Below the pieces are notes generated by a model. That model saw nothing but the letters and a program-made list of their open reading frames with translations. It made no database searches and was not told where the DNA came from. A DNA stretch of 64,000 nucleotides from Escherichia phage PE37, in the sequence record NC_054929.1. One strand, 5' to 3'. Positions 3,450-24,202 of this stretch are shown here, piece by piece. The number at the start of each line of letters is the position of its first letter. The first letter of the stretch is position 1. The position numbers were made by a program, and so were the translations under genes.

Positions 3450-4020
<571 letters not shown>

Positions 4021-4039
4021 AGTTACTTGGAGGGATAAA

Positions 4040-4456
4040 ATGACTCGTATTAATTTGACTTTAGTATCTGAACTTGCTGATCAACATTTAATCGCAGAAT
4101 ACCGTGAATTGCCACGTGTTTTTGGTATAGTTCGTAAACATGTGGCAAATGGTAAACGGGTTAAAGATTTTAAAATATCTTCCGAGTTTATTTTAGGTTC
4201 TGGTCATGTTACGTTCTTTTACGATAAGTTAGAATTTTTGCGAAAGCGTCAATCAGACATTATAACGGAATGCTTAAAACGCGGGTTTAGTATAAAAGAT
4301 ACTGAAGTTCCTGACATCGGCGATATTCCAGCAGAATGGAAAAATGATTATAATCCATGCAAATCAGCTATTAAATTGAGTCAACAACGACTCAATGAAA
4401 AAATTTTAATGAAGCCACACTGGTACAAGTATTACGGCAAAAATATTTACATTTAA
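4040..4456 (+). CDS. denV: endonuclease V, pyrimidine-dimer DNA glycosylase
   Basis: 138 aa, [17 protein letters not shown]..., matches T4 endo V. Confidence 0.95.
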
Positions 4457-4465
4457 AGGAAACAC

Positions 4466-4939
4466 ATGAAAACATATCAAGAATTTATTACTGAAGCAGC
4501 TATTAATTCTCAAATTATTGCTGAATCTTTTACTGATCTTTTGAAATTTAAAAAAGGTCAAAAAATCACTGCTGTATTGGATGATGGTACAGAAGTTGAG
4601 ATGGATGTACAGGGATATAATTATGCAGTAGATGGAAAACTGTATAATAAATCTCATGCTAAATTTGATTCATTTGACGACTTTGTTAATACAGTTGAAG
4701 ATGAAAAAACTCGTCGATCCATTGCAACTGGTGATGCTAAGGTTCTTATGGCACATGGTCATGAACGCATTCGCGCTAAACAGAATAAAATGGGCGAAGA
4801 TAATTTCGCATTAGTTGGTTATCAATCTGGTAAACAAACTTATGGTTATCAGCGTACTGCTACCATGTATAATAAAAATGGTAAAATTGCCTTTGTGAAT
4901 AGTAAGGGTTCTATTCAGTACGTTAAATCGTTCAAATAA
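4466..4939 (+). CDS. capsid internal protein (Ip family)
   Basis: N-terminal capsid-targeting sequence MKTYQEFITE with protease site after E; 157 aa, length differs from T4 ipII/ipIII. Confidence 0.75.
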   Translation: MKTYQEFITEAAINSQIIAESFTDLLKFKKGQKITAVLDDGTEVEMDVQGYNYAVDGKLYNKSHAKFDSFDDFVNTVEDEKTRRSIATGDAKVLMAHGHERIRAKQNKMGEDNFALVGYQSGKQTYGYQRTATMYNKNGKIAFVNSKGSIQYVKSFK

Positions 4940-5073
4940 TATGGGAACAGCCTGGACCTCATTTGAGGTATTCCCGCCAACCTGTAATAAGGTCGAGCCC
5001 AAGCGCGGTAATGGGTAAATACAGAAATGGACAATTCATGCGCCATGGAATGGCCCAAACTTAGAGAGAAGAA

Positions 5074-5613
5074 ATGAGAACATTTTTAACTGGTCCTTAT
5101 CTATCCCTGATGAATGCTTTTACACACCATTCTGATGCTAGAGTAGAAGAAATTTGTAAAAACGAATATATCCCGCCATTTGAAGACTTACTTAAGCAGT
5201 ATTGCACACTTCGTATAGATGGTGGACGTCAATCCGGTAAATCAACTGCTGTGACTAACTTTGCTGCTAATTGGCTGTATGATGGTGGAACAGTTATTGT
5301 TCTTTCTAATACTTCAGCTTACGCTAAAATTTCTGCAAATAACATTAAAAAAGAATTTTCTCGTTATTCTGGCGATGATATTCGATTCCGCTTATTTACC
5401 GATTCTGTCCGTAGTTTTATCGGTAATAAAGGAAGCAAGTTCAGAGGTTTATCGCTTTCACGAATTTTGTATATAATTGATGAGCCTGTTAAAGCTCCTG
5501 ATATGGATAAAATTTACGATATTCATATTGAAACTGTACATTACTGTTGCAATAGTAAATGCTGCATTGGTGGTATTACTCGTCCACAGTTTTTCATAAT
5601 CGGAATGCAATGA
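5074..5613 (+). CDS. small P-loop NTPase (vs.8 position)
   Basis: Walker A GGRQSGKST, Walker B ILYIIDEP. Confidence 0.6.
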   Translation: MRTFLTGPYLSLMNAFTHHSDARVEEICKNEYIPPFEDLLKQYCTLRIDGGRQSGKSTAVTNFAANWLYDGGTVIVLSNTSAYAKISANNIKKEFSRYSGDDIRFRLFTDSVRSFIGNKGSKFRGLSLSRILYIIDEPVKAPDMDKIYDIHIETVHYCCNSKCCIGGITRPQFFIIGMQ

Positions 5614-5939
5614 TGACAGACACACAGCTTTTCGAATATCTTTATTTTTCGCCAAAAACTATTAAAAATAAATTGGTGAATCATTTTGAAATTTTGGCAA
5701 ATAATAACGTCTTGAGCGAATTTTATCCTAAGCAATACAAATTACAAAAAGGCGTATTCAAAGGATGCAGAGTTTTGTGCACTGCTCCTAATGCAAGATT
5801 AATGAATAAAATTCCATATTTTACCATGGAATTTATTGATGGACCTTTTAAAGGACTAATCACCCAAAGTTTAATGGCATATGATTCTGAGCCATTTTTA
5901 ATTAAAGAACAGTCTTGGATAAATTTATTTTCTAATTGA
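5610..5939 (+). CDS. hypothetical protein
   Basis: ATGATGA overlap with upstream stop. Confidence 0.5.
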   Translation: MMTDTQLFEYLYFSPKTIKNKLVNHFEILANNNVLSEFYPKQYKLQKGVFKGCRVLCTAPNARLMNKIPYFTMEFIDGPFKGLITQSLMAYDSEPFLIKEQSWINLFSN

Positions 5940-5945
5940 GGTTAT

Positions 5946-6308
5946 ATGAAAGCATATCAAATTCTTGAAGGCACACATAAAGGTACTATTTATTTTGAAG
6001 ATGGTATTCAAGCACGAATTATTGTCTCCAAAACCTTTAAAGAGGACTCTTTTGTAGACCCAGAAATTTTCTACGGTTTGCATGCCCGTGAAATTGAAAT
6101 TGAACCACAGCCTACAGTTAAAATTGAAGGTGGTCAACACCTGAACGTTAACGTTCTGCGTCGTGAAACTCTGGAAGATGCAGTTAAGCATCCGGAAAAA
6201 TATCCGCAGCTGACCATCCGTGTATCCGGTTATGCAGTTCGCTTTAACTCTCTGACTCCGGAACAGCAGCGCGACGTTATCGCTCGTACCTTTACTGAGA
6301 GCTTGTAA
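5946..6308 (+). CDS. autonomous glycyl-radical cofactor (GrcA/YfiD-like)
   Basis: C-terminal [29 protein letters not shown] glycyl-radical motif; 3' half has E. coli-like codon usage. Confidence 0.85.
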
Positions 6309-6529
6309 TGGCAAAGATAATTATTGAAGGTTCTAAAGATGTGTTAAATGCTTTCGCCGAGTGGTTTAGTAATTCAGGCGAACAGCAATTTAATGAAGCG
6401 TGGACCATGGGTGATATTGATGGAATTTATCCTACGACAGAAATTTCTGTTCAAGGATATGGCATTCATGAACCTATTCGTTTAGTTGAATATGATTTAT
6501 GTACTGGTGAGGAAGTCAAATATGATTGA
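6308..6529 (+). CDS. hypothetical protein
   Basis: TAATG overlap; 73 aa. Confidence 0.55.
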   Translation: MAKIIIEGSKDVLNAFAEWFSNSGEQQFNEAWTMGDIDGIYPTTEISVQGYGIHEPIRLVEYDLCTGEEVKYD

Positions 6530-6788
6530 AGACATTAAGGGTTATAAGCCACATACTGAAGAGAAAATCGGTAAAGTGAATGCTATCAAAGATGCTGAAG
6601 TTCGTTTAGGACTTATCTTTGACGCTTTATATGATGAATTCTGGGAAGCACTAGATAATTGTGAAGACTGTGAATTCGCGAAGAATTATGCTGAAAGTCT
6701 CGATCAGTTAACTATTGCTAAAACGAAACTCAAAGAAGCCAGTATGTGGGCTTGTCGTGCTGTGTTCCAACCAGAGGAAAAATATTAA
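6522..6788 (+). CDS. hypothetical protein at vs.4 position (candidate Acb2-like cyclic-nucleotide sponge)
   Basis: in-frame ATG at 6522; assignment by synteny only. Confidence 0.5.
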
Positions 6789-14967: not shown

Positions 14968-14969
14968 TA

Positions 14970-14995
14970 GGGAGCCTTCGGGCTCCCTTTTTATT
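14970..14995 (+). terminator. rho-independent terminator (UUCG loop)
   Basis: GGGAGCCTTCGGGCTCCC followed by TTTTTATTT. Confidence 0.85.
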
Positions 14996-14999
14996 TCAA

Positions 15000-15055
15000 A
15001 AATTTTTCACAAAGTTGTTTACAAGCATAAAGCTTTATGGTACTATACAACTATC
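15000..15055 (+). promoter_or_regulatory. early promoter
   Basis: GTTTAC 15017-15022, 18 bp, TACTAT 15041-15046. Confidence 0.7.
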
Positions 15056-16514: not shown

Positions 16515-17042
16515 ATGAACGCTAAAGATATTTTCAACTTGGTAAACTACAATGATGGTAAATTTAAATCTGAAGCACAAAGTAAGTTCTTTAATGACAT
16601 CTCAATCGGAGGTGAAATCACTGTTGATGGAGGACAAATTTACAAATCCCGTTGGAATTGGATCGTTATTATTGATGAGATTGGTATTGTAGAAATTTAC
16701 AAAAATACGAATAAAAATCGTACATTACACTGGTCTCGTGATACTAACGAACAGTACAAAAAGGATAAAGCATCTAAGTTATCTCGTGTAACTCAAGAAG
16801 ATATTGAGTTCATCAAGAAAGATATTTTGATGTATGATAACTTAATTGCTGAAGAGCAAGCTGTTATTGATAAATTTGATGAGATTAAAGCTTCTCATAA
16901 AATTCCTGATTTTATGAAAGAATCAGTAAATGAACGATACACTCTCATTTCAGAGCGTATTGAAACTTACAAAAAGCAAAGAGCTGAACGCCAGAATACT
17001 CTTCGGAAGTTTGAAGAACGGTTAAAGACGGTACTTGCATAA
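16515..17042 (+). CDS. hypothetical protein
   Basis: ATG+SD GGAGG; 175 aa. Confidence 0.6.
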   Translation: MNAKDIFNLVNYNDGKFKSEAQSKFFNDISIGGEITVDGGQIYKSRWNWIVIIDEIGIVEIYKNTNKNRTLHWSRDTNEQYKKDKASKLSRVTQEDIEFIKKDILMYDNLIAEEQAVIDKFDEIKASHKIPDFMKESVNERYTLISERIETYKKQRAERQNTLRKFEERLKTVLA

Positions 17043-17097
17043 CCGCTTTATACCAAGGATGGTATAATGGTTCTAAGCCCTTTTAATTGAGATTATT

Positions 17098-17505
17098 ATG
17101 AAACAGCTGATAATTAAAAGATTGAATTTATTGATATGTTGTTTATGTATAGTAATTGCATATGGTTATTACGCAATTAATGATTATATGCATTATAAAG
17201 ATTATGATGTTACTGTAGTTAATACCCTTACAGGAACTCAAGGAAAGGGGTCTAGTTTATCGTTTATTGCCGTATATGAACTCAAAGACGGTTATAGATT
17301 TAGCGAATATATTTCCCCAGAGATGTATTCATCAATAGAAAAAGGCGATAATATTACTGTAAGTTTACGTCCTTTCGACGTAAAACAGACATTGTTTGAT
17401 AATATTGTTTGGTTCTTTGGAATGGTATTAGTTCAATCTGTATGCGGTGCTTATATAGTCTTTTCCATCATATTCTGCGTATTTAGTAAAATTGAAATTG
17501 AGTGA
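17098..17505 (+). CDS. membrane protein
   Basis: ATG; N- and C-terminal TM segments. Confidence 0.55.
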   Translation: MKQLIIKRLNLLICCLCIVIAYGYYAINDYMHYKDYDVTVVNTLTGTQGKGSSLSFIAVYELKDGYRFSEYISPEMYSSIEKGDNITVSLRPFDVKQTLFDNIVWFFGMVLVQSVCGAYIVFSIIFCVFSKIEIE

Positions 17506-17512
17506 GGAAAAT

Positions 17513-18400
17513 ATGTCAGTAGTAATTAATAATGTCAATGCAGTAATTAAATCTTTAGTTAATAAAAAATTGAATGAATGGACTGTACTTCGTCGTGGAG
17601 AGCCAGATAAATTTTTTCATAGATTTAACCCAACTTTGGATTTGAATGTTATTGACAGAGATGTTCATGCAGAAATTTTAGATAAGTTTAAAGTTGATAT
17701 TGGATTTGGATTAGAAAAACATTTACAGCGAACAAACGGGTCTGGAATGGGTTTATCTAATCGCATCATGAAAGCCCTTAATAAAATTGGAGCATTGTCT
17801 CGTATTAACGCGAGTGAAATCCTTCGTAATTATAATAAAGGATATGACCTTTATGGCCGACTAATGCCGAAATTGTCATTCGATCAAATGATTGCGGATT
17901 TGTGGGAAAATCAACGACGATTATTAGCATTAGGCGCTAGATTAGCTAAAGGTCTAGATAAACAAATGATTTTTAAAACTAATAATACAGAAGACCTTAA
18001 ATGCTTTAAATTTAGTACTCGTGGAGATGACTATTACATCAGAGCTCACTCTACAGATTATGTCAATATGGGGCATCATCTCTGTTTAGCTTTTGAAGTT
18101 TTAAAAGAAGCCGGAACATTAGAATATTCATCTGGGGCAAAATGCCCGATTGGTTCAAATTGTATTTTAATTTATCGCCCGAATGAATCCAGTTCAACTA
18201 AATTGCCTACAAAACCTGTACCAGTTCGTAATAATGAAAAACATTCTGAGCAAATTGATTATTTTAATAAGCAAATTGAAGAGCTGAATATTTCTATTCA
18301 ACAATATGATGATGAAATTTTCAGACTATCTGGACTGAGTAGTAAAGCTAAATCTGAGCGTGAAAAGTTAATTAAAATTGTTGATTTACTTAAATCTTAA
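17513..18400 (+). CDS. hypothetical protein with C-terminal coiled coil (tandem set A)
   Basis: SD GAGGAAA; C-terminal heptad-rich helix. Confidence 0.6.
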   Translation: MSVVINNVNAVIKSLVNKKLNEWTVLRRGEPDKFFHRFNPTLDLNVIDRDVHAEILDKFKVDIGFGLEKHLQRTNGSGMGLSNRIMKALNKIGALSRINASEILRNYNKGYDLYGRLMPKLSFDQMIADLWENQRRLLALGARLAKGLDKQMIFKTNNTEDLKCFKFSTRGDDYYIRAHSTDYVNMGHHLCLAFEVLKEAGTLEYSSGAKCPIGSNCILIYRPNESSSTKLPTKPVPVRNNEKHSEQIDYFNKQIEELNISIQQYDDEIFRLSGLSSKAKSEREKLIKIVDLLKS

Positions 18401-18408
18401 GGAACACC

Positions 18409-19428
18409 ATGAAAACTCGTTCTCAAATTGAAGATATGGTTCGTAATGCCAGCTATACTCGTGATGTTATGACATTTTTGTGCCAAAATAATTTAGACCC
18501 TGATAAAGTTAATCGTGATATTCACTTTAAATATATGAATAGCAGTGAATGGTTACGTCATTTTAGTAAAGCGGGATATATTACACAAATGACTGCTCGT
18601 GAGCAGCTCACCGATTTCTGTAAAACTATTGATTATAAAAATCCTCTATTTGTTCAAGGCGTTGGTCAAAGTAAGGTCGATTTATCATCTGGATTTTTCA
18701 ATCCAAATCATTATCGTATTGAATGGAGATTTATTGCTCTGTTCCGTAGACAATTAAAGCAAATTTTGTCTACTGCTAGTCGATTAAAAGGCTCTGATAT
18801 TAACTTAAAGAATCTGAAATTTGATGGTTATACTCTTCAGATGGAAGTAAGACCGTTAAAAGAAAATAATAGAACTGCACGAATTAGCTTTAAACCTAAT
18901 ACAAAAAATTCTCTTTCAATTTGTGAATGCCTTAAATCACAGTTGACAGAAGCATTTAAGTATATGGATGTTGTTGCTGCTGTTCAATCTAAGATTTTAC
19001 CTCGTTTTGAACGATTTAAGTTAGATACAACATCATATGAACTTGATATGATCGTTTCATTTAAATACGATTTTTTGAGAAAGGACGAAGTCCCGCAAGA
19101 GAAAAAGCAAGAAGTGCAAGATAACTTAAATTTATCTAATTACTCATCAAACGATCCTAAATTTTGGATGTATAGTTCAGGCAATAAAGATGCATGGAAA
19201 TTCAATAAAGTGAATTTTCTTCCTATTGAAAATCCGAGTCTTAAACCTGTTGAAAAATGGCACGCGGATGCGATTGGGAAGTCTATCAAGGCAGTAGATG
19301 ATGAACTCGTTAAAGCAACTAATGAAGTGTTAGAAGCTGAAAAGATGCTAGAAAAAGCTCAAGAAAAAGTCAAAAATCTCACGAAGCAACGTTCTAAACT
19401 GAACAATGCACTAAATGCACTGAACTAG
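18409..19428 (+). CDS. hypothetical protein with C-terminal coiled coil (tandem set B)
   Basis: ATG+SD; C-terminal coiled coil. Confidence 0.65.
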   Translation: MKTRSQIEDMVRNASYTRDVMTFLCQNNLDPDKVNRDIHFKYMNSSEWLRHFSKAGYITQMTAREQLTDFCKTIDYKNPLFVQGVGQSKVDLSSGFFNPNHYRIEWRFIALFRRQLKQILSTASRLKGSDINLKNLKFDGYTLQMEVRPLKENNRTARISFKPNTKNSLSICECLKSQLTEAFKYMDVVAAVQSKILPRFERFKLDTTSYELDMIVSFKYDFLRKDEVPQEKKQEVQDNLNLSNYSSNDPKFWMYSSGNKDAWKFNKVNFLPIENPSLKPVEKWHADAIGKSIKAVDDELVKATNEVLEAEKMLEKAQEKVKNLTKQRSKLNNALNALN

Positions 19429-19462
19429 TTTACTTTGCCACAAGGATGTGGTATAATGTTCT
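19420..19462 (+). promoter_or_regulatory. early promoter
   Basis: GTTTAC 19428-19433, 18 bp, TATAAT 19452-19457. Confidence 0.65.
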
Positions 19463-19485
19463 TACTTTCTACTGAGGAGATTAAT

Positions 19486-20487
19486 ATGACTCGTAACGAA
19501 TATATCAAATCATTCAATAGCGTTATTGATGATAAAGCTATACCGATGTTTGGCCAAAATAGCGTTCTTTCTATTATCAATCAATGGCTCAATAGTGTTG
19601 ATGCAGGTATTGTTTCTTCTGCTAAATTTATTCATGAAATTCGTAAAATTTCTAGCCGTGTAGATAAAGATAATATCAAGAAAACCTTTAAAGAGTCTCG
19701 TCTTCTTTCATATTTGGTTAATCGGGATATTCTTGGTAATTTTGGGAAAGAAATTAAACGAACCAAAGATGTAGTAGGATATAATTGGTTCGGTGATGTT
19801 AATTCTTATCATCTTAATAATAAAGAAGACCCTGAGAATATTTTTACTCGTCGTTGGATTAGTAATTTCAGACTTTTTAAAGGACAAATTCTAAAATCAG
19901 CTTCTAAATTATGTTATGGCGATTATCGTCAAATTCATCCTTTGGCTTCTGATATGATTATCGTAAAAGAATATGAGCTTGATGAAAATAAAGTAGCTAT
20001 TTTTGTGAATTATGGATTTTTTACACCAAACGCTAATCAAAAGAATATTAATAAATTTTTCTCAATTGCTAGTGATATAACTCGACAATTAGAGACTGCA
20101 CTACTTTGTATGGAAACAGTAGAAAATATTCATACATATCCTTTTAAGAATATATGCGGATGGGAAGGATATAAAATTGTAATTAGTCTTCGTGAAGTGA
20201 AATGTGCTTATTCACCTACTGATAAAGAAATTTACCAACAAAAATGTGATGAAATTGTGAATACTCCTAAAGAAGAAACTACCCTTGAGGAACTAATGGA
20301 TAATCTTGATGATTCACCTGAACCGGTAGAAATTCGTCCAGAAGTTATTGCATTAGAAAAAGCTTATAAAGAAGTTCTAGAAATTTCTAATAAAGCGCAG
20401 AAAGAATATGAGCAGGCTAAAAAGATTTGGGAAGAATCCGTTAATCGTCTTGATCGTCTTGAACAAGCTTTAAAGTTAATTAAGTAA
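19486..20487 (+). CDS. hypothetical protein with C-terminal coiled coil (tandem set C)
   Basis: ATG+SD GAGGAG; C-terminal coiled coil. Confidence 0.65.
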   Translation: MTRNEYIKSFNSVIDDKAIPMFGQNSVLSIINQWLNSVDAGIVSSAKFIHEIRKISSRVDKDNIKKTFKESRLLSYLVNRDILGNFGKEIKRTKDVVGYNWFGDVNSYHLNNKEDPENIFTRRWISNFRLFKGQILKSASKLCYGDYRQIHPLASDMIIVKEYELDENKVAIFVNYGFFTPNANQKNINKFFSIASDITRQLETALLCMETVENIHTYPFKNICGWEGYKIVISLREVKCAYSPTDKEIYQQKCDEIVNTPKEETTLEELMDNLDDSPEPVEIRPEVIALEKAYKEVLEISNKAQKEYEQAKKIWEESVNRLDRLEQALKLIK

Positions 20488-20539
20488 TTTAAAGCCAAGG
20501 ATGGCTCGGAGTATAAATCATTAACCAAGTGAGAAGAAC

Positions 20540-21466
20540 ATGAAAACTCGTAAACATTATATTGATTATTTTGACAGTCTTATTACTAAACACCGTAATT
20601 ATCAAATCGGACACAGAGCAGTAATCAATAATATTCTTCGTGATTTTTTAGACTATATTGGTTGGGAAAACCATATTTGTAAAGATACACAAAATGCGTA
20701 TTCACATTCTCTTGGTTCTTTGCTCGAGTGGTTCAAGCGTTCCCGATTACTATCTTCTGTGATAGCTGTTAATAATGTTAAAAAATTTATGTATCCAATC
20801 TACATTAAGACTAATGTATCAAATGCTAGTGTTGTTACATTTAATATTATTAACGACGTGAAAAGAACTTATTTAGAAGAATGGTTTTCTAAAGATAGTA
20901 AAGAAAAATTTGCTAGTGAATTTTCACACGAATTCAATAATAACGTAAATATGCTTTTTAAGCATTCTCGTAGACTGTTTTGTCATGGTGATAACCGTAC
21001 TATTAATGTGAATGTAAAAGACTGGGTTACGGCTAAATTTATTCCATCGTCCCAGAATGGACAATTTGAATTGTCAATTATCGTTTGCGCTCCGCATGAG
21101 ATATATAAAAATCTTCCGTATATGAAACCACGCGAAGCTAATAAACACAATGAAACTATTAGTTCTTTGGCTTATAATTTGCGCGTGTTATTATCTGATA
21201 TGGATGTAGTCAAATCCTTTGATGATAATACGAATTATGGTCTTTCACTGTTTGAAACTAAATTTGTTATTAAATTAAAGGACCCTAGTGAATTTAAACC
21301 TATACCAAAATCCAATCATGGAAATGATACTATGAAAGAAGAACGTGAATATCTCAATGTCCGTTTGACTGAAGTTGAAAAACAAATTGAAGAGCATACT
21401 AAAGTTCTTAAGGCTTTAACCGCCAAAGCAAATGGTTTACGTAATGCTATTGAGGTATTGAAATGA
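20540..21466 (+). CDS. hypothetical protein with C-terminal coiled coil (tandem set D)
   Basis: ATG+SD; C-terminal coiled coil. Confidence 0.65.
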   Translation: MKTRKHYIDYFDSLITKHRNYQIGHRAVINNILRDFLDYIGWENHICKDTQNAYSHSLGSLLEWFKRSRLLSSVIAVNNVKKFMYPIYIKTNVSNASVVTFNIINDVKRTYLEEWFSKDSKEKFASEFSHEFNNNVNMLFKHSRRLFCHGDNRTINVNVKDWVTAKFIPSSQNGQFELSIIVCAPHEIYKNLPYMKPREANKHNETISSLAYNLRVLLSDMDVVKSFDDNTNYGLSLFETKFVIKLKDPSEFKPIPKSNHGNDTMKEEREYLNVRLTEVEKQIEEHTKVLKALTAKANGLRNAIEVLK

Positions 21467-21852
21467 AAAAGCGTTTATTAGAAGACATTGCAGCTTCAAG
21501 TAATTCCAGTTTAATTAAAATTATTATGGCTGGTGAGGAAGATGATATGGAAATGCGTGGAAAGATTCACGGCTGCGACGATTTAGATTTTAAACCTCCA
21601 GCATGGGATGCTATTATGGCTATGGTTGAACGACGTGAAAGAGCTTCTAAAAACGTTCCTAATTGCCCTGAATGCGATACTGAACAAGTTCAATTGATTA
21701 ACTGGCGTAAACCAGAGCTTGAATATAAATGCCGTCAATGTAAACATAAATTCAGTAAGCATGCTCCGGAAATGGTTAAATTGCCTGACTCTACTGAGTT
21801 CTTTAAAGAACTTGTGAGTGTTCAACCAATGCCTAATAATATTTTGGATTAA
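21463..21852 (+). CDS. zinc-ribbon protein
   Basis: ATGA overlap; CPECD...CRQC. Confidence 0.55.
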
Positions 21853-21854
21853 AA

Positions 21855-22097
21855 ATGACCAAGCGTAAAGAATATATGGAGGCTGCTGAAAAGGCAGTCC
21901 GTGAATTAGCAATAGCTTATTATAATGAACATGGTAAATTTCCTGATAGATACAGCGTGCTTAAATCTGCTTTAACTCGTTCATATAAAAATATGCTATC
22001 AGAAGTAAGTGATATTATATACAAACATAAAGAACAAACGGGCCAAAGTCTTGATTACGACGAGACTTTTAAACAAGTACTAGGAATTAAGGAATAA
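21855..22097 (+). CDS. hypothetical protein
   Basis: ATG; 80 aa. Confidence 0.55.
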
Positions 22098-22098
22098 T

Positions 22099-22362
22099 AT
22101 GTTTAAAGTATATGGTTATGATAGCAACATTCACAAATGTGTGTATTGCGATAATGCAAAACGTCTTTTGACCGTGAAGAAACAGCCGTTTGAATTTATC
22201 AACATTATGCCGGAAAAAGGTGTTTTTGATGATGAGAAAATCGCTGAGCTTCTGACTAAACTAGGTCGTGATACTCAAATCGGCTTGACAATGCCCCAGG
22301 TATTTGCTCCTGATGGAAGTCATATTGGTGGATTTGACCAACTGCGAGAATATTTTAAATGA
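22099..22362 (+). CDS. nrdC: thioredoxin/glutaredoxin NrdC
   Basis: 87 aa, MFKVYGYDSNIHKCVYCDNAKRL..., CVYC active site; matches T4 NrdC. Confidence 0.95.
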   Translation: MFKVYGYDSNIHKCVYCDNAKRLLTVKKQPFEFINIMPEKGVFDDEKIAELLTKLGRDTQIGLTMPQVFAPDGSHIGGFDQLREYFK

Positions 22363-22574
22363 TGCTCGAAGGAACTGACTATATTCACGATTACCGCGGA
22401 AGCGCGGTATATGTAGGTGATGAAGTTGCAGTTTATTATGGGTATGGAACTTTGATGACAGCAAAGGTTATTCAAATTAAAAATAATCGTGCTAAACTCG
22501 AAGTTTATTATTCTAATGATGAAAAGTCTATTTCTAAGTGGAAATACGGCGATTGTATGGTTAAATTGGGGTAA
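22359..22574 (+). CDS. hypothetical protein
   Basis: ATGA overlap; 71 aa. Confidence 0.5.
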   Translation: MMLEGTDYIHDYRGSAVYVGDEVAVYYGYGTLMTAKVIQIKNNRAKLEVYYSNDEKSISKWKYGDCMVKLG

Positions 22575-22576
22575 AT

Positions 22577-22747
22577 ATGATTTACGATATTAATGTATCA
22601 CGAGCTCCGTCAATGGTTACTATTCCAGCCGAAGAACTAGAACGTCTTCAGAAAATTGAAGAACTTCTTTGGGAAATTGAATGTGCCCTGCCATCAGGAC
22701 TAGAATCCTGGATTGATGATGAAGAACTTAATAAATTGCGAAATTAA
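22577..22747 (+). CDS. small hypothetical protein (56 aa)
   Basis: ATG after upstream stop; not in ORF track. Confidence 0.4.
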   Translation: MIYDINVSRAPSMVTIPAEELERLQKIEELLWEIECALPSGLESWIDDEELNKLRN

Positions 22748-22757
22748 TTGGTGAAAA

Positions 22758-23078
22758 ATGACTATTGAAAATAAATTAGATGTTGATGCAGTTCTGAGCG
22801 AAATCATTGAAGACCATGATGCATTTTCGGAAAACTATGATTTCGATTTTTCCGATTATCTTAAACCTGTCGAAATAGAAGACTGGGTGCAAGATGGTAA
22901 ATGTCAATATCGTCAGTGTGTTTACTTTAGTCCAAAACATAATGTACATGTGGCTGTAAATGAATCTCGGTTAGGTTCTTATCATTCTGACTGGTATTAT
23001 GCAGTTCCGACTGTTGAACTAGTCGAGCCCCATGAACGTGTAGTAACTCAGACAATACGAGAATGGATTACGCTATAA
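22758..23078 (+). CDS. hypothetical acidic protein
   Basis: ATG; 106 aa. Confidence 0.55.
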   Translation: MTIENKLDVDAVLSEIIEDHDAFSENYDFDFSDYLKPVEIEDWVQDGKCQYRQCVYFSPKHNVHVAVNESRLGSYHSDWYYAVPTVELVEPHERVVTQTIREWITL

Positions 23079-23728: not shown

Positions 23729-24202
23729 ATGTTATTGACTGGCAAATTATATAAAGAAGAAAAACAGAAATTTTATGATGCACAAAATGGTAAATGTTTA
23801 ATTTGCCAACGAGAACTAAATCCTGACGTTCAAGCTAATCATCTTGATCATGACCATGAATTAAATGGACCAAAAGCAGGAAAAGTACGTGGATTGCTCT
23901 GTAATCTCTGCAATGCCGCGGAAGGTCAAATGAAGCATAAATTTAATCGTTCTGGCTTAAAGGGACAAGGCGTTGATTATCTTGAATGGTTAGAAAATTT
24001 ACTTACTTATTTAAAATCCGATTACACCCAAAATAATATTCATCCTAACTTTGTTGGAGATAAATCAAAGGAATTTTCTCGTTTAGGAAAAGAGGAAATG
24101 ATGGCTGAGATGCTTCAAAGAGGATTTGAATATAATGAATCTGACACTAAAACACAATTAATAGCTTCATTTAAGAAGCAGCTTAGAAAGAGTTTAAAAT
24201 GA
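23729..24202 (+). CDS. 49: endonuclease VII (Holliday junction resolvase)
   Basis: 157 aa, MLLTGKLYKEEKQKFYDAQNGKCLICQ..., matches T4 gp49. Confidence 0.95.
   Translation: MLLTGKLYKEEKQKFYDAQNGKCLICQRELNPDVQANHLDHDHELNGPKAGKVRGLLCNLCNAAEGQMKHKFNRSGLKGQGVDYLEWLENLLTYLKSDYTQNNIHPNFVGDKSKEFSRLGKEEMMAEMLQRGFEYNESDTKTQLIASFKKQLRKSLK

Follow-up and report, generated by a model that had tools for sequence, protein, structure and literature searches.

Four tandem paralogues at the nrdC.3-nrdC.6 locus of T4-like phages form one family that includes the anti-Dsr1 gene nrdC.5

Introduction

Phage T4 is the best-studied lytic phage, and approximately half of its genes are without known function. According to Srikant, Guegler & Laub (eLife 2022; PMC9391042), a T4 deletion mutant fails to plate on Escherichia coli ECOR17 or on MG1655 carrying the ECOR17 gene dsr1, and plasmid-borne T4 nrdC.5 alone restores plating on dsr1+ cells. 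Dsr1 is a sirtuin (SIR2)-domain protein thought to deplete nicotinamide adenine dinucleotide (NAD+), and nrdC.5 is treated in that study as a single uncharacterised early gene, with no mechanism, structure or family relation (PMC9391042). In this study, we analyse nrdC.5 together with three neighbouring genes in a stretch of 64,000 nucleotides from Escherichia phage PE37 (NC_054929.1), hereafter called the window. We find that these four tandem genes, nrdC.6, nrdC.5, nrdC.4 and nrdC.3, belong to one family and are paralogues of ancient origin.

Several described systems lie close to this locus in kind. DSAD1, found in Bacillus phages, inhibits the sirtuin defence protein DSR2 (PMC10973363, PMC10981675), and gp49.2 of phage T6 is an inhibitor of OLD defence (PMC13096335). 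The PeSL (promoter-early stem-loop) cassettes have been proposed as mediators of modular shuffling in the hyperplastic regions of T4-like phages (Arbiol et al., 2010; PMC2839356). A full-text literature search for nrdC.3, nrdC.4 and nrdC.6 returned genome announcements only and no function. No account of the paralogy, of the common architecture, of the pattern of conservation or of the family's occurrence across T4-like phages was found in the literature searched.

Results

The four genes are open reading frames (ORFs) in tandem on the + strand of the window: a nrdC.6-type gene at 17513-18400 (295 residues; phrog_2257, E 2.8e-152), a nrdC.5-type gene at 18409-19428 (339 residues; Pfam DUF7235, PF23882, 412.5 bits), a nrdC.4-type gene at 19486-20487 (333 residues; phrog_1435, together with nrdC.3) and a nrdC.3-type gene at 20540-21466 (308 residues; phrog_1435, E 1.9e-98). 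These are exactly the coordinates given in an earlier note on this DNA, which had placed the genes at nrdC.3-nrdC.6 by count; the placement is correct according to synteny with annotated T4 and RB51, by which we assigned the names. The window is a Tequatrovirus (T4-like) segment that runs in reverse of the T4 GenBank coordinate direction, which puts its early genes on the + strand. Over the 5.4-kb stretch 17000-22400, the identity to Escherichia phage 303Ecol101PP is 97.2%, and 692 phage records match this stretch. The window nrdC.5 has 95% amino-acid identity to T4 nrdC.5 and the matching genomic position. Shine-Dalgarno sequences of the GAGG/GGAG type stand 6-9 nucleotides 5' of the ATG in nrdC.6, nrdC.5 and nrdC.4, and that of nrdC.3, GTGAGAAG, is weaker.

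Pairwise BLASTP is uninformative as a test of homology among the four proteins except for the best pair, nrdC.3/nrdC.4, and even this match is weak (E 0.005). The statement in the earlier note that the N-terminal sequences have diverged past obvious similarity therefore holds for BLASTP, but profile and structure methods show the homology. With hhalign, the nrdC.4 and nrdC.3 families align at 98.2% probability (E 2.8e-14), and the nrdC.5 and nrdC.4 families align at 89.8% (E 1.8e-6, 243 columns; 81.6% and E 1.1e-5 with the tool alignments). The nrdC.6 family aligns to a merged nrdC.5/4/3 profile, which included the bridging sequences P0235 and P0238, at 95% (E 3.7e-8). After the removal of N-terminal artefact columns, which derived from mis-called upstream starts, the values are 92.9% and E 3.7e-7, and the alignment spans residues 65-152 of nrdC.6 and 33-129 of nrdC.5. 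Reversed-alignment controls gave E 0.012-0.6 (0.012-0.018 for the comparison of nrdC.6 with the merged profile), and none of six neighbouring genes matched either profile in hhalign. Each family has significant profile similarity to the rest, beyond these controls. Direct hhalign comparisons of nrdC.6 with single families gave E 0.003-0.2, no better than the reversed controls; the direct comparison with the nrdC.5 and nrdC.4 profiles was set aside, and the relation is resolved by the merged profile only. A search of 1.84 billion representative proteins with the nrdC.5/nrdC.4/nrdC.3 profile gave only 19 matches at E <=0.001, P0235 and P0238 among them. Because these two are each independently matched by the nrdC.5 hidden Markov model (HMM) and by the nrdC.4 HMM, they bridge these two families.

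The conserved helical core of nrdC.6 (residues 65-152; 17705-17968, + strand) contains the motifs 'LSR.NA..IL.NY' and 'NQRRLLALGARLA.G.DKQ', which are common with nrdC.5, nrdC.4 and nrdC.3. Inspection by eye of the invariant alignment columns gives further colinear motifs, namely 'SR(L)LS...L..FG', 'IL..A.KL..GD' and 'QL..AL..M..V', followed by 'KP(V/I)' directly before the C-terminal helix and then a terminal motif, L-x-x-A/I/V-L/I-x-x-L-K, that is common to all four proteins (terminal sequences EKLIKIVDLLKS in nrdC.6, SKLNNALNALN in nrdC.5 and DRLEQALKLIK in nrdC.4). AlphaFold2 models were made for nrdC.5 (predicted local distance difference test score, pLDDT, 66.5) and nrdC.6 (pLDDT 77.7), and the order of secondary structures is identical in the two: N-terminal helices, including the aligned pairs, a beta-hairpin, a helix, a second beta-hairpin, a disordered linker and the terminal helix. 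The profile alignment agrees with these independently predicted secondary structures. A Foldseek search of BFVD with the nrdC.5 model retrieved the nrdC.6 entries of phages JS10 and Sf25 (E 5.5e-5 and 1.6e-4, probability 1.00), with template modelling scores kept low (0.32-0.37) by the flexible linker and helix; the two modelled proteins, nrdC.5 and nrdC.6, have the same fold. The shared architecture that had been proposed for the four genes is borne out.

Because profiles and structure both show homology, we consider the four genes to be one family. The classification in databases is more divided. In PHROGs, phrog_1435 unites nrdC.3 with nrdC.4, and nrdC.5 and nrdC.6 fall into separate families; the precomputed Pfam families are PF26899 for nrdC.6 (105 homologue clusters) and PF26897 for nrdC.4 (64 homologue clusters). 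The gathering threshold of PF23882 is 30 bits, and nrdC.5 alone among the four passes it, with a full-length match; nrdC.3 reaches 14.3 bits over the C-terminal helix alone, below the threshold, and nrdC.4 and nrdC.6 have no match to this family. This division into three separate families in Pfam and PHROGs, the essentially negative pairwise BLASTP, the direct nrdC.6 comparison without significance and the existence of a heptad-rich tail in nrdC.8 despite undetectable homology could be taken to mean that the shared helix is convergent or coincidental and that four unrelated ORFans have come together in a hyperplastic region. Against this reading, the merged-profile comparison reaches significance and its controls are clean, bridging sequences connect the families, the motifs and secondary-structure elements are colinear, and Foldseek cross-matches occur between families. 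We regard convergence as largely refuted and highly improbable. The earlier note had also named, as contrary to its proposal, the case that the proteins were known, unrelated T4 nrdC.x products; half of this is true, as they are known T4 ORFs and yet related.

Three further sequences from the searches are worth recording. P0236 combines an unrelated N-terminus of 120 residues with the exact nrdC.5 helix, and we dropped it as evidence of a modular tail; it is probably an assembly chimera, because it lies on an 803-bp metagenome contig of which the first 479 bases match no phage record. In P0120, residues 145-271 of nrdC.5 are fused to the C-terminal half of nrdC.3 (allele B), and nrdC.4 is deleted; recombination between paralogues was rejected for this case because the junction joins non-equivalent positions, which indicates a deletion. 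P0122, the nrdC.6 of Shigella phage Sf25, contains an internal tandem duplication of 83 residues and is 378 residues long.

Many deposited phage genomes give the label 'thioredoxin' to all genes of the run nrdC.8 to nrdC.1, and in several GenBank records it extends to every gene from nrdC.8 through nrdC. For nrdC.3-6, searches of Pfam and NCBIfam gave no match to a thioredoxin or glutaredoxin family. Because the four proteins are without a thioredoxin domain, the label looks like propagation of a name from the neighbouring nrdC.

We measured the heptad character of the C-terminal segments with a crude score of our own (not COILS or MARCOIL), which rewards hydrophobic residues at a and d and polar residues elsewhere and penalises Pro and Gly. 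We ranked in this way the last 50 residues of 76 + strand ORFs in the window, none overlapping another and each 100 residues or longer, and nrdC.3-6 took ranks 1, 2, 3 and 5 of 76, nrdC.4 being at rank 5. Of 200 composition-preserving shuffles per protein, the number that matched the observed score was 0 for nrdC.6, 0 for nrdC.5, 6 for nrdC.3 and 11 for nrdC.4, which makes the last the weakest case. Heptad periodicity in a helix poor in Pro and Gly is present in nrdC.6 (residues 242-275), nrdC.5 (285-339) and nrdC.3 (263-305) and is weaker in nrdC.4. Rank 4 of 76 belongs to nrdC.8 (16515-17042, 175 residues), two genes upstream, which has a heptad-rich C-terminal helix ending ERIETYKKQRAERQNTLRKFEERLKTVLA. 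We rejected nrdC.8 as a fifth family member, as its homology is undetectable (hhalign E >0.1).

According to the AlphaFold2 model of nrdC.5, a linker predicted to be disordered (residues 226-280; 19084-19248, + strand; pLDDT 29-39) is followed by a single amphipathic helix of 56 residues (283-338; 19255-19422, + strand), which ends QRSKLNNALNALN and has pLDDT 77-89 from residue 291 on. The corresponding part of nrdC.6 (residues 242-294; 18236-18394, + strand; ending EREKLIKIVDLLKS) is predicted to form not one helix but a helix-loop-helix, with helices at 242-271 and 277-294 after a short disordered stretch. The C-terminal segment of nrdC.4 (residues 286-333; 20341-20484, + strand), which is free of Pro and Gly and ends NRLDRLEQALKLIK, and the heptad segment of nrdC.3 (residues 263-308; 21326-21463, + strand) both align to the nrdC.5 helix. 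Each protein had been described beforehand as a globular N-terminal region of about 250 residues and a C-terminal coiled coil. What the heptad ranks and the models show is amphipathic heptad-rich helices and not a coiled coil in the sense of an oligomer, with nrdC.6 departing from the single helix, and the ordered N-terminal part is closer to 225 residues, after which the flexible linker begins. In the reference T4 genome (AF158101.6; locus coordinates 1967-2794), NrdC.6 has 275 residues, of which the last ~16 are out of frame, and ends QIEELIFLFNNMMMKFSDYLD. The frame is intact in T4 record OZ035787.1 and in most relatives (295-296 residues), and the change in the reference is either a laboratory-strain frameshift or an old sequencing error.

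The family is restricted to T4-like phages (Straboviridae). The sequence homologues all come from T-even-type phages or phage-containing assemblies, and Foldseek adds uncharacterised proteins of ~300-370 residues from T4-like phages of Enterobacter, Pectobacterium, Acinetobacter, Yersinia, Erwinia, Klebsiella, Serratia and Citrobacter. The locus holds four copies in Tequatrovirus, three in Mosigvirus, Gaprivervirus and Dhakavirus, one in Jiaodavirus and Moonvirus, and none in Krischvirus GEC-3S. One copy was detected in Acinetobacter phage AB-Navy71, where the member is a gene of 335 residues directly upstream of nrdC (93% probability, E 2.7e-7). In Jiaodavirus and Moonvirus, the hypervariable family member is directly preceded by a conserved gene of 262 residues (JD18 gp071, locus coordinates 4142-4930; Merlin gp92, locus coordinates 4393-5181), with 99% DNA identity between two Jiaodavirus phages; we rejected it as a family member, as it is unrelated.

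Losses occur within Tequatrovirus. Pinarejo is without nrdC.6, and ACG-C40 is without most of nrdC.5 and all of nrdC.4 and nrdC.3. In the T2 record PV648363.1 (locus coordinates 3602-4492 and 5640-6579), a frameshift or pseudogenisation has left nrdC.6 and nrdC.4 as two ORFs apiece, and nrdC.5 and nrdC.3 are intact. Because these phages have naturally lost or split them, the four genes are dispensable in Tequatrovirus. The natural loss of single members, the genera with a single copy and the rescue of the T4 deletion mutant by plasmid-borne nrdC.5 alone suggest that the members can act independently. These observations bear on the suggestion in the earlier note that the family may be anchored to a common partner through the coiled coil. 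In a strong form of this idea, the four proteins would be subunits of one hetero-oligomeric complex joined by their C-terminal helices. The tandem arrangement on one strand, the common terminal motif and the heptad-rich tails in all four would agree with such a complex. Against it stand the copy number, which ranges from 0 to 4 across genera, the loss or splitting of individual members in phages that are otherwise intact, the complementation in trans by nrdC.5 without the others (PMC9391042) and the missing tail in the nrdC.6 of the T4 reference. We consider a complex of this kind quite unlikely.

We compared the window genes pairwise with six relatives and calculated the ratio of nonsynonymous to synonymous substitution rates (dN/dS). 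The values are 0.15-0.30 for nrdC.5, 0.21-0.31 for nrdC.4 and 0.16-0.38 for nrdC.3, and those of nrdC.3-5 are 3-6 times those of neighbouring genes (0.00-0.12 for nrdC.8-10, nrdC, pin and gp49, with most values of the conserved flanking genes at 0.03-0.11). For nrdC.6, the full-length comparisons gave 0.04-0.07, and the intact two-thirds of the split T2 copy gave 0.17. The smaller, allele-variable genes nrdC.7, nrdC.2 and nrdC.1 scatter more widely (0.00-0.49).

According to tblastn, nrdC.3 is dimorphic in Tequatrovirus: 136 records match the window copy, which belongs to the rarer allele class, with an identity of 90% or more, and more than 220 match it at ~60%. The two classes are 60% identical inside flanks that are ~97-100% identical. 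Compared with Pinarejo, the DNA of the gene body (20750-21350) has an identity of 0.55-0.67, which rises to 0.87-1.0 from 21350, just before the C-terminal helix. Residues 263-308 of nrdC.3 belong to the conserved flank and not to the divergent allele cassette. The tail is 80% identical between allele classes, against 42-45% for residues 101-262. The adjacent gene nrdC.2 (21463-21852, 129 residues) is also dimorphic, being 99% identical to Pinarejo and MLP2 and 79% identical to T4 and ACG-C40 (synonymous divergence, dS, ~0.8-1.0, over 75% coverage), where the gene is shorter (104 residues). As the nrdC.2 and nrdC.3 dimorphisms have different breakpoints, the cassettes of this mosaic locus were exchanged independently of one another. 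The Jiaodavirus homologue has 57% DNA identity between two phages, within flanks of 94-99%.

In seven of eight cross-genus or cross-allele comparisons, each made within one of the four families, the C-terminal helix is the most conserved region, with 60-80% identity; in the eighth (nrdC.5, window vs Gaprivervirus) it has 35%. The two Jiaodavirus alleles break this pattern, as their tail is the least conserved part (31%). The beta subdomain and linker are 16-56% identical and usually among the least conserved parts. In nrdC.4, the tail is 65-75% identical across genera and the rest 16-48%; in nrdC.5, the column entropy within Tequatrovirus is highest over residues ~180-280, with a peak at 220-260. 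A conserved helix and a terminal motif common to all four proteins would fit a conserved interaction. That the family diversifies, as the earlier note had suggested, is upheld by the allele dimorphism, the raised dN/dS and the gains and losses, on top of the homology established by profiles and structure.

These patterns also bear on a different explanation, according to which the proteins would be host-takeover or regulatory factors that dock through the C-terminal helix on one abundant host or phage complex, and the effect of nrdC.5 on Dsr1 would be indirect, for example through removal of the Dsr1 trigger. The high conservation of nrdC.6 (dN/dS near 0.05), the terminal motif common to all paralogues, the helix as the usual maximum of conservation, and the early status of the genes, together with a Dsr1 rescue for which PMC9391042 gives no mechanism, are compatible with takeover. 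All four genes are nevertheless dispensable in nature, as the losses and splits in Pinarejo, ACG-C40 and T2 demonstrate; Krischvirus is without the family at the locus; and factors aimed at a conserved host hub would not typically show the allele replacement and the higher dN/dS seen in nrdC.3-5. We judge takeover to be rather unlikely.

The 57-bp spacer between nrdC.5 and nrdC.4 (19429-19485) holds a near-consensus promoter of the T4 early type, predicted by a promoter scan (19429-19457, + strand; GTTTAC, 17 nucleotides, TATAAT with TG; 10/12 matches), and a stem-loop between the promoter hexamers (19436-19453). The gene nrdC.4 would have its own putative early-type promoter here, and the arrangement resembles a PeSL cassette. 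Farther upstream, a GC-rich hairpin at 14969-14988 (8 bp, 6 of them GC) has T-runs on both strands and is terminator-like in both directions. It lies just upstream of an early-type promoter (15018-15046) and of nrdC.10, which carries the Walker A motif GAAGIGKT. The transcription unit to which the family belongs probably begins at this hairpin.

Downstream of the family, the window contains nrdC (thioredoxin; 22099-22362) and gp49 (endonuclease VII; 23729-24202). Between these two genes, an ORF of 106 residues at 22758-23078 is identical to T4 gp49.2 at 100 of 106 positions. Because gp49.2 is a published anti-OLD factor, this stretch of the genome already holds counter-defence genes. Two ORFs between nrdC and the gp49.2 copy (22359-22574 and 22577-22747) differ from T4 49.3 and follow the arrangement of other T-even phages, in which the second is annotated 'antitoxin'.

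Searches of Pfam, NCBIfam and PDB sequences gave no functional domain for the four proteins. In the PDB sequence and fold comparison, structurally characterised anti-defence proteins included, no significant match over the globular domain was obtained. A globular part without a solved relative or a catalytic signature fits a binding protein.

Discussion

We propose, with moderate confidence, that this family consists of early, non-enzymatic proteins that would bind and neutralise host immune proteins. The confidence is only moderate because the functional support concerns nrdC.5 alone and because nrdC.6 evolves like a conserved housekeeping gene. The idea that the four genes encode anti-defence effectors was raised in the earlier note, and it stands for nrdC.5, as the T4 gene restores infection on E. 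coli carrying Dsr1 (PMC9391042); nrdC.3, nrdC.4 and nrdC.6 are candidate immune-evasion factors because they are paralogues of this anti-Dsr1 gene.

The layout of the proteins suggests how such inhibitors might be built. In each protein, a conserved N-terminal helical core contains the two motifs common to the family; behind it lie a subdomain of beta-hairpin, helix and beta-hairpin and a flexible linker, these two holding most of the sequence variation, and then the conserved 'KP(V/I)' element and the conserved C-terminal amphipathic helix. The helical core and the C-terminal helix would be the constant parts, and the variable beta subdomain and linker would recognise the particular defence protein. 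The helix probably oligomerises the protein, which would give the inhibitor avidity against oligomeric defence effectors. Many defence effectors, those of the sirtuin type included, act as oligomers, and a multivalent inhibitor is plausible for this reason. The paralogues and the divergent nrdC.3 alleles may target other systems or variants, and cassette-like recombination in the hyperplastic region would reshuffle the paralogues and alleles. The raised dN/dS of nrdC.3-5, the nrdC.3 alleles, the divergence in Jiaodavirus and the natural deletions and splits would together be the signature of an arms race.

Several observations weigh against this proposal. Functional data cover one of the four genes, and even for nrdC.5 direct binding to the SIR2-domain NADase Dsr1, on which it would act in the manner described, is assumed. 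No gene has a gene-wide dN/dS above 1 in the comparison with six relatives. The member nrdC.6 is the most conserved of the family, at 95-99% identity across Tequatrovirus and under strong purifying selection, and its evolution looks more like that of a housekeeping or takeover gene than that of an arms-race gene. Its tail is predicted by AlphaFold2 to be an intramolecular hairpin, and the NrdC.6 of reference T4 is without this helix-loop-helix. The models are themselves of moderate quality (pLDDT 66.5 and 77.7), with shallow alignments underneath. Finally, the conserved gene ends could partly reflect use as recombination linkers and not protein function.

A bolder version of the proposal, which we think unlikely, would make the four paralogues a battery of inhibitors on one scaffold. 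The helix would be the common means of assembly or docking, and the hypervariable middles would each be tuned to a different oligomeric effector that depletes NAD+ or is related to those that do, namely Dsr1 for nrdC.5, and for each of the other three paralogues (nrdC.3, nrdC.4 and nrdC.6) further systems of the sirtuin, TIR or STAND type. If this were true, allele swapping at the locus would be a main determinant of the host range of T-even phages on wild E. coli.

Through their paralogy to nrdC.5, three ORFs without known function become specific candidates. Our proposal that the family inhibits immune proteins predicts that specificity lies in the variable middle and that the C-terminal helix is a constant module, and it offers a reason why nrdC.3 and the Jiaodavirus homologue have such markedly dimorphic alleles. 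If it is true, one could study at this compact locus how a single inhibitor scaffold is diversified by a phage to counter several immune systems, and the locus would provide a host-range marker for therapeutic T4-like phages. If the prediction fails, the family still represents a fold specific to Straboviridae and without a solved relative.

Compared with known systems, the closest is T4 NrdC.5 itself (DUF7235, PF23882). The window gene at 18409-19428 is its orthologue, and the other three are distant paralogues, which differ in falling below the PF23882 threshold and in having no reported function. DSAD1, which a phage encodes, neutralises a SIR2-domain NADase without being an enzyme, and it is in this function that we propose an analogy for nrdC.5; however, its target protein, DSR2, is another one, and a relation to the nrdC family in sequence or fold is undetectable. 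The alpha-helical hairpin coiled coils of the prefoldin tentacles and of CHMP4B show a generic structural resemblance to the tails, without homology and without a common globular domain. As in the PeSL cassettes (PMC2839356), the locus behaves as a set of exchangeable cassettes, and an early promoter with an embedded stem-loop is found in the nrdC.5/nrdC.4 spacer. Here, however, there is one such spacer among four genes, and the nrdC.3 alleles have their boundary within the gene itself, ahead of the part that encodes the C-terminal helix, and not in a spacer. The Dmd/TifA/AdfA 'anti-TA island' (TA, toxin-antitoxin), IPIII and gp49.2 share with the present genes that they are non-essential early genes, clustered and variable between T-even phages, that they are lost or amplified under selection, and that they are tuned to particular host systems. 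Those proteins are small and mutually unrelated, whereas the nrdC.3-nrdC.6 locus holds three to four large (~300-residue) paralogues in tandem with one architecture.

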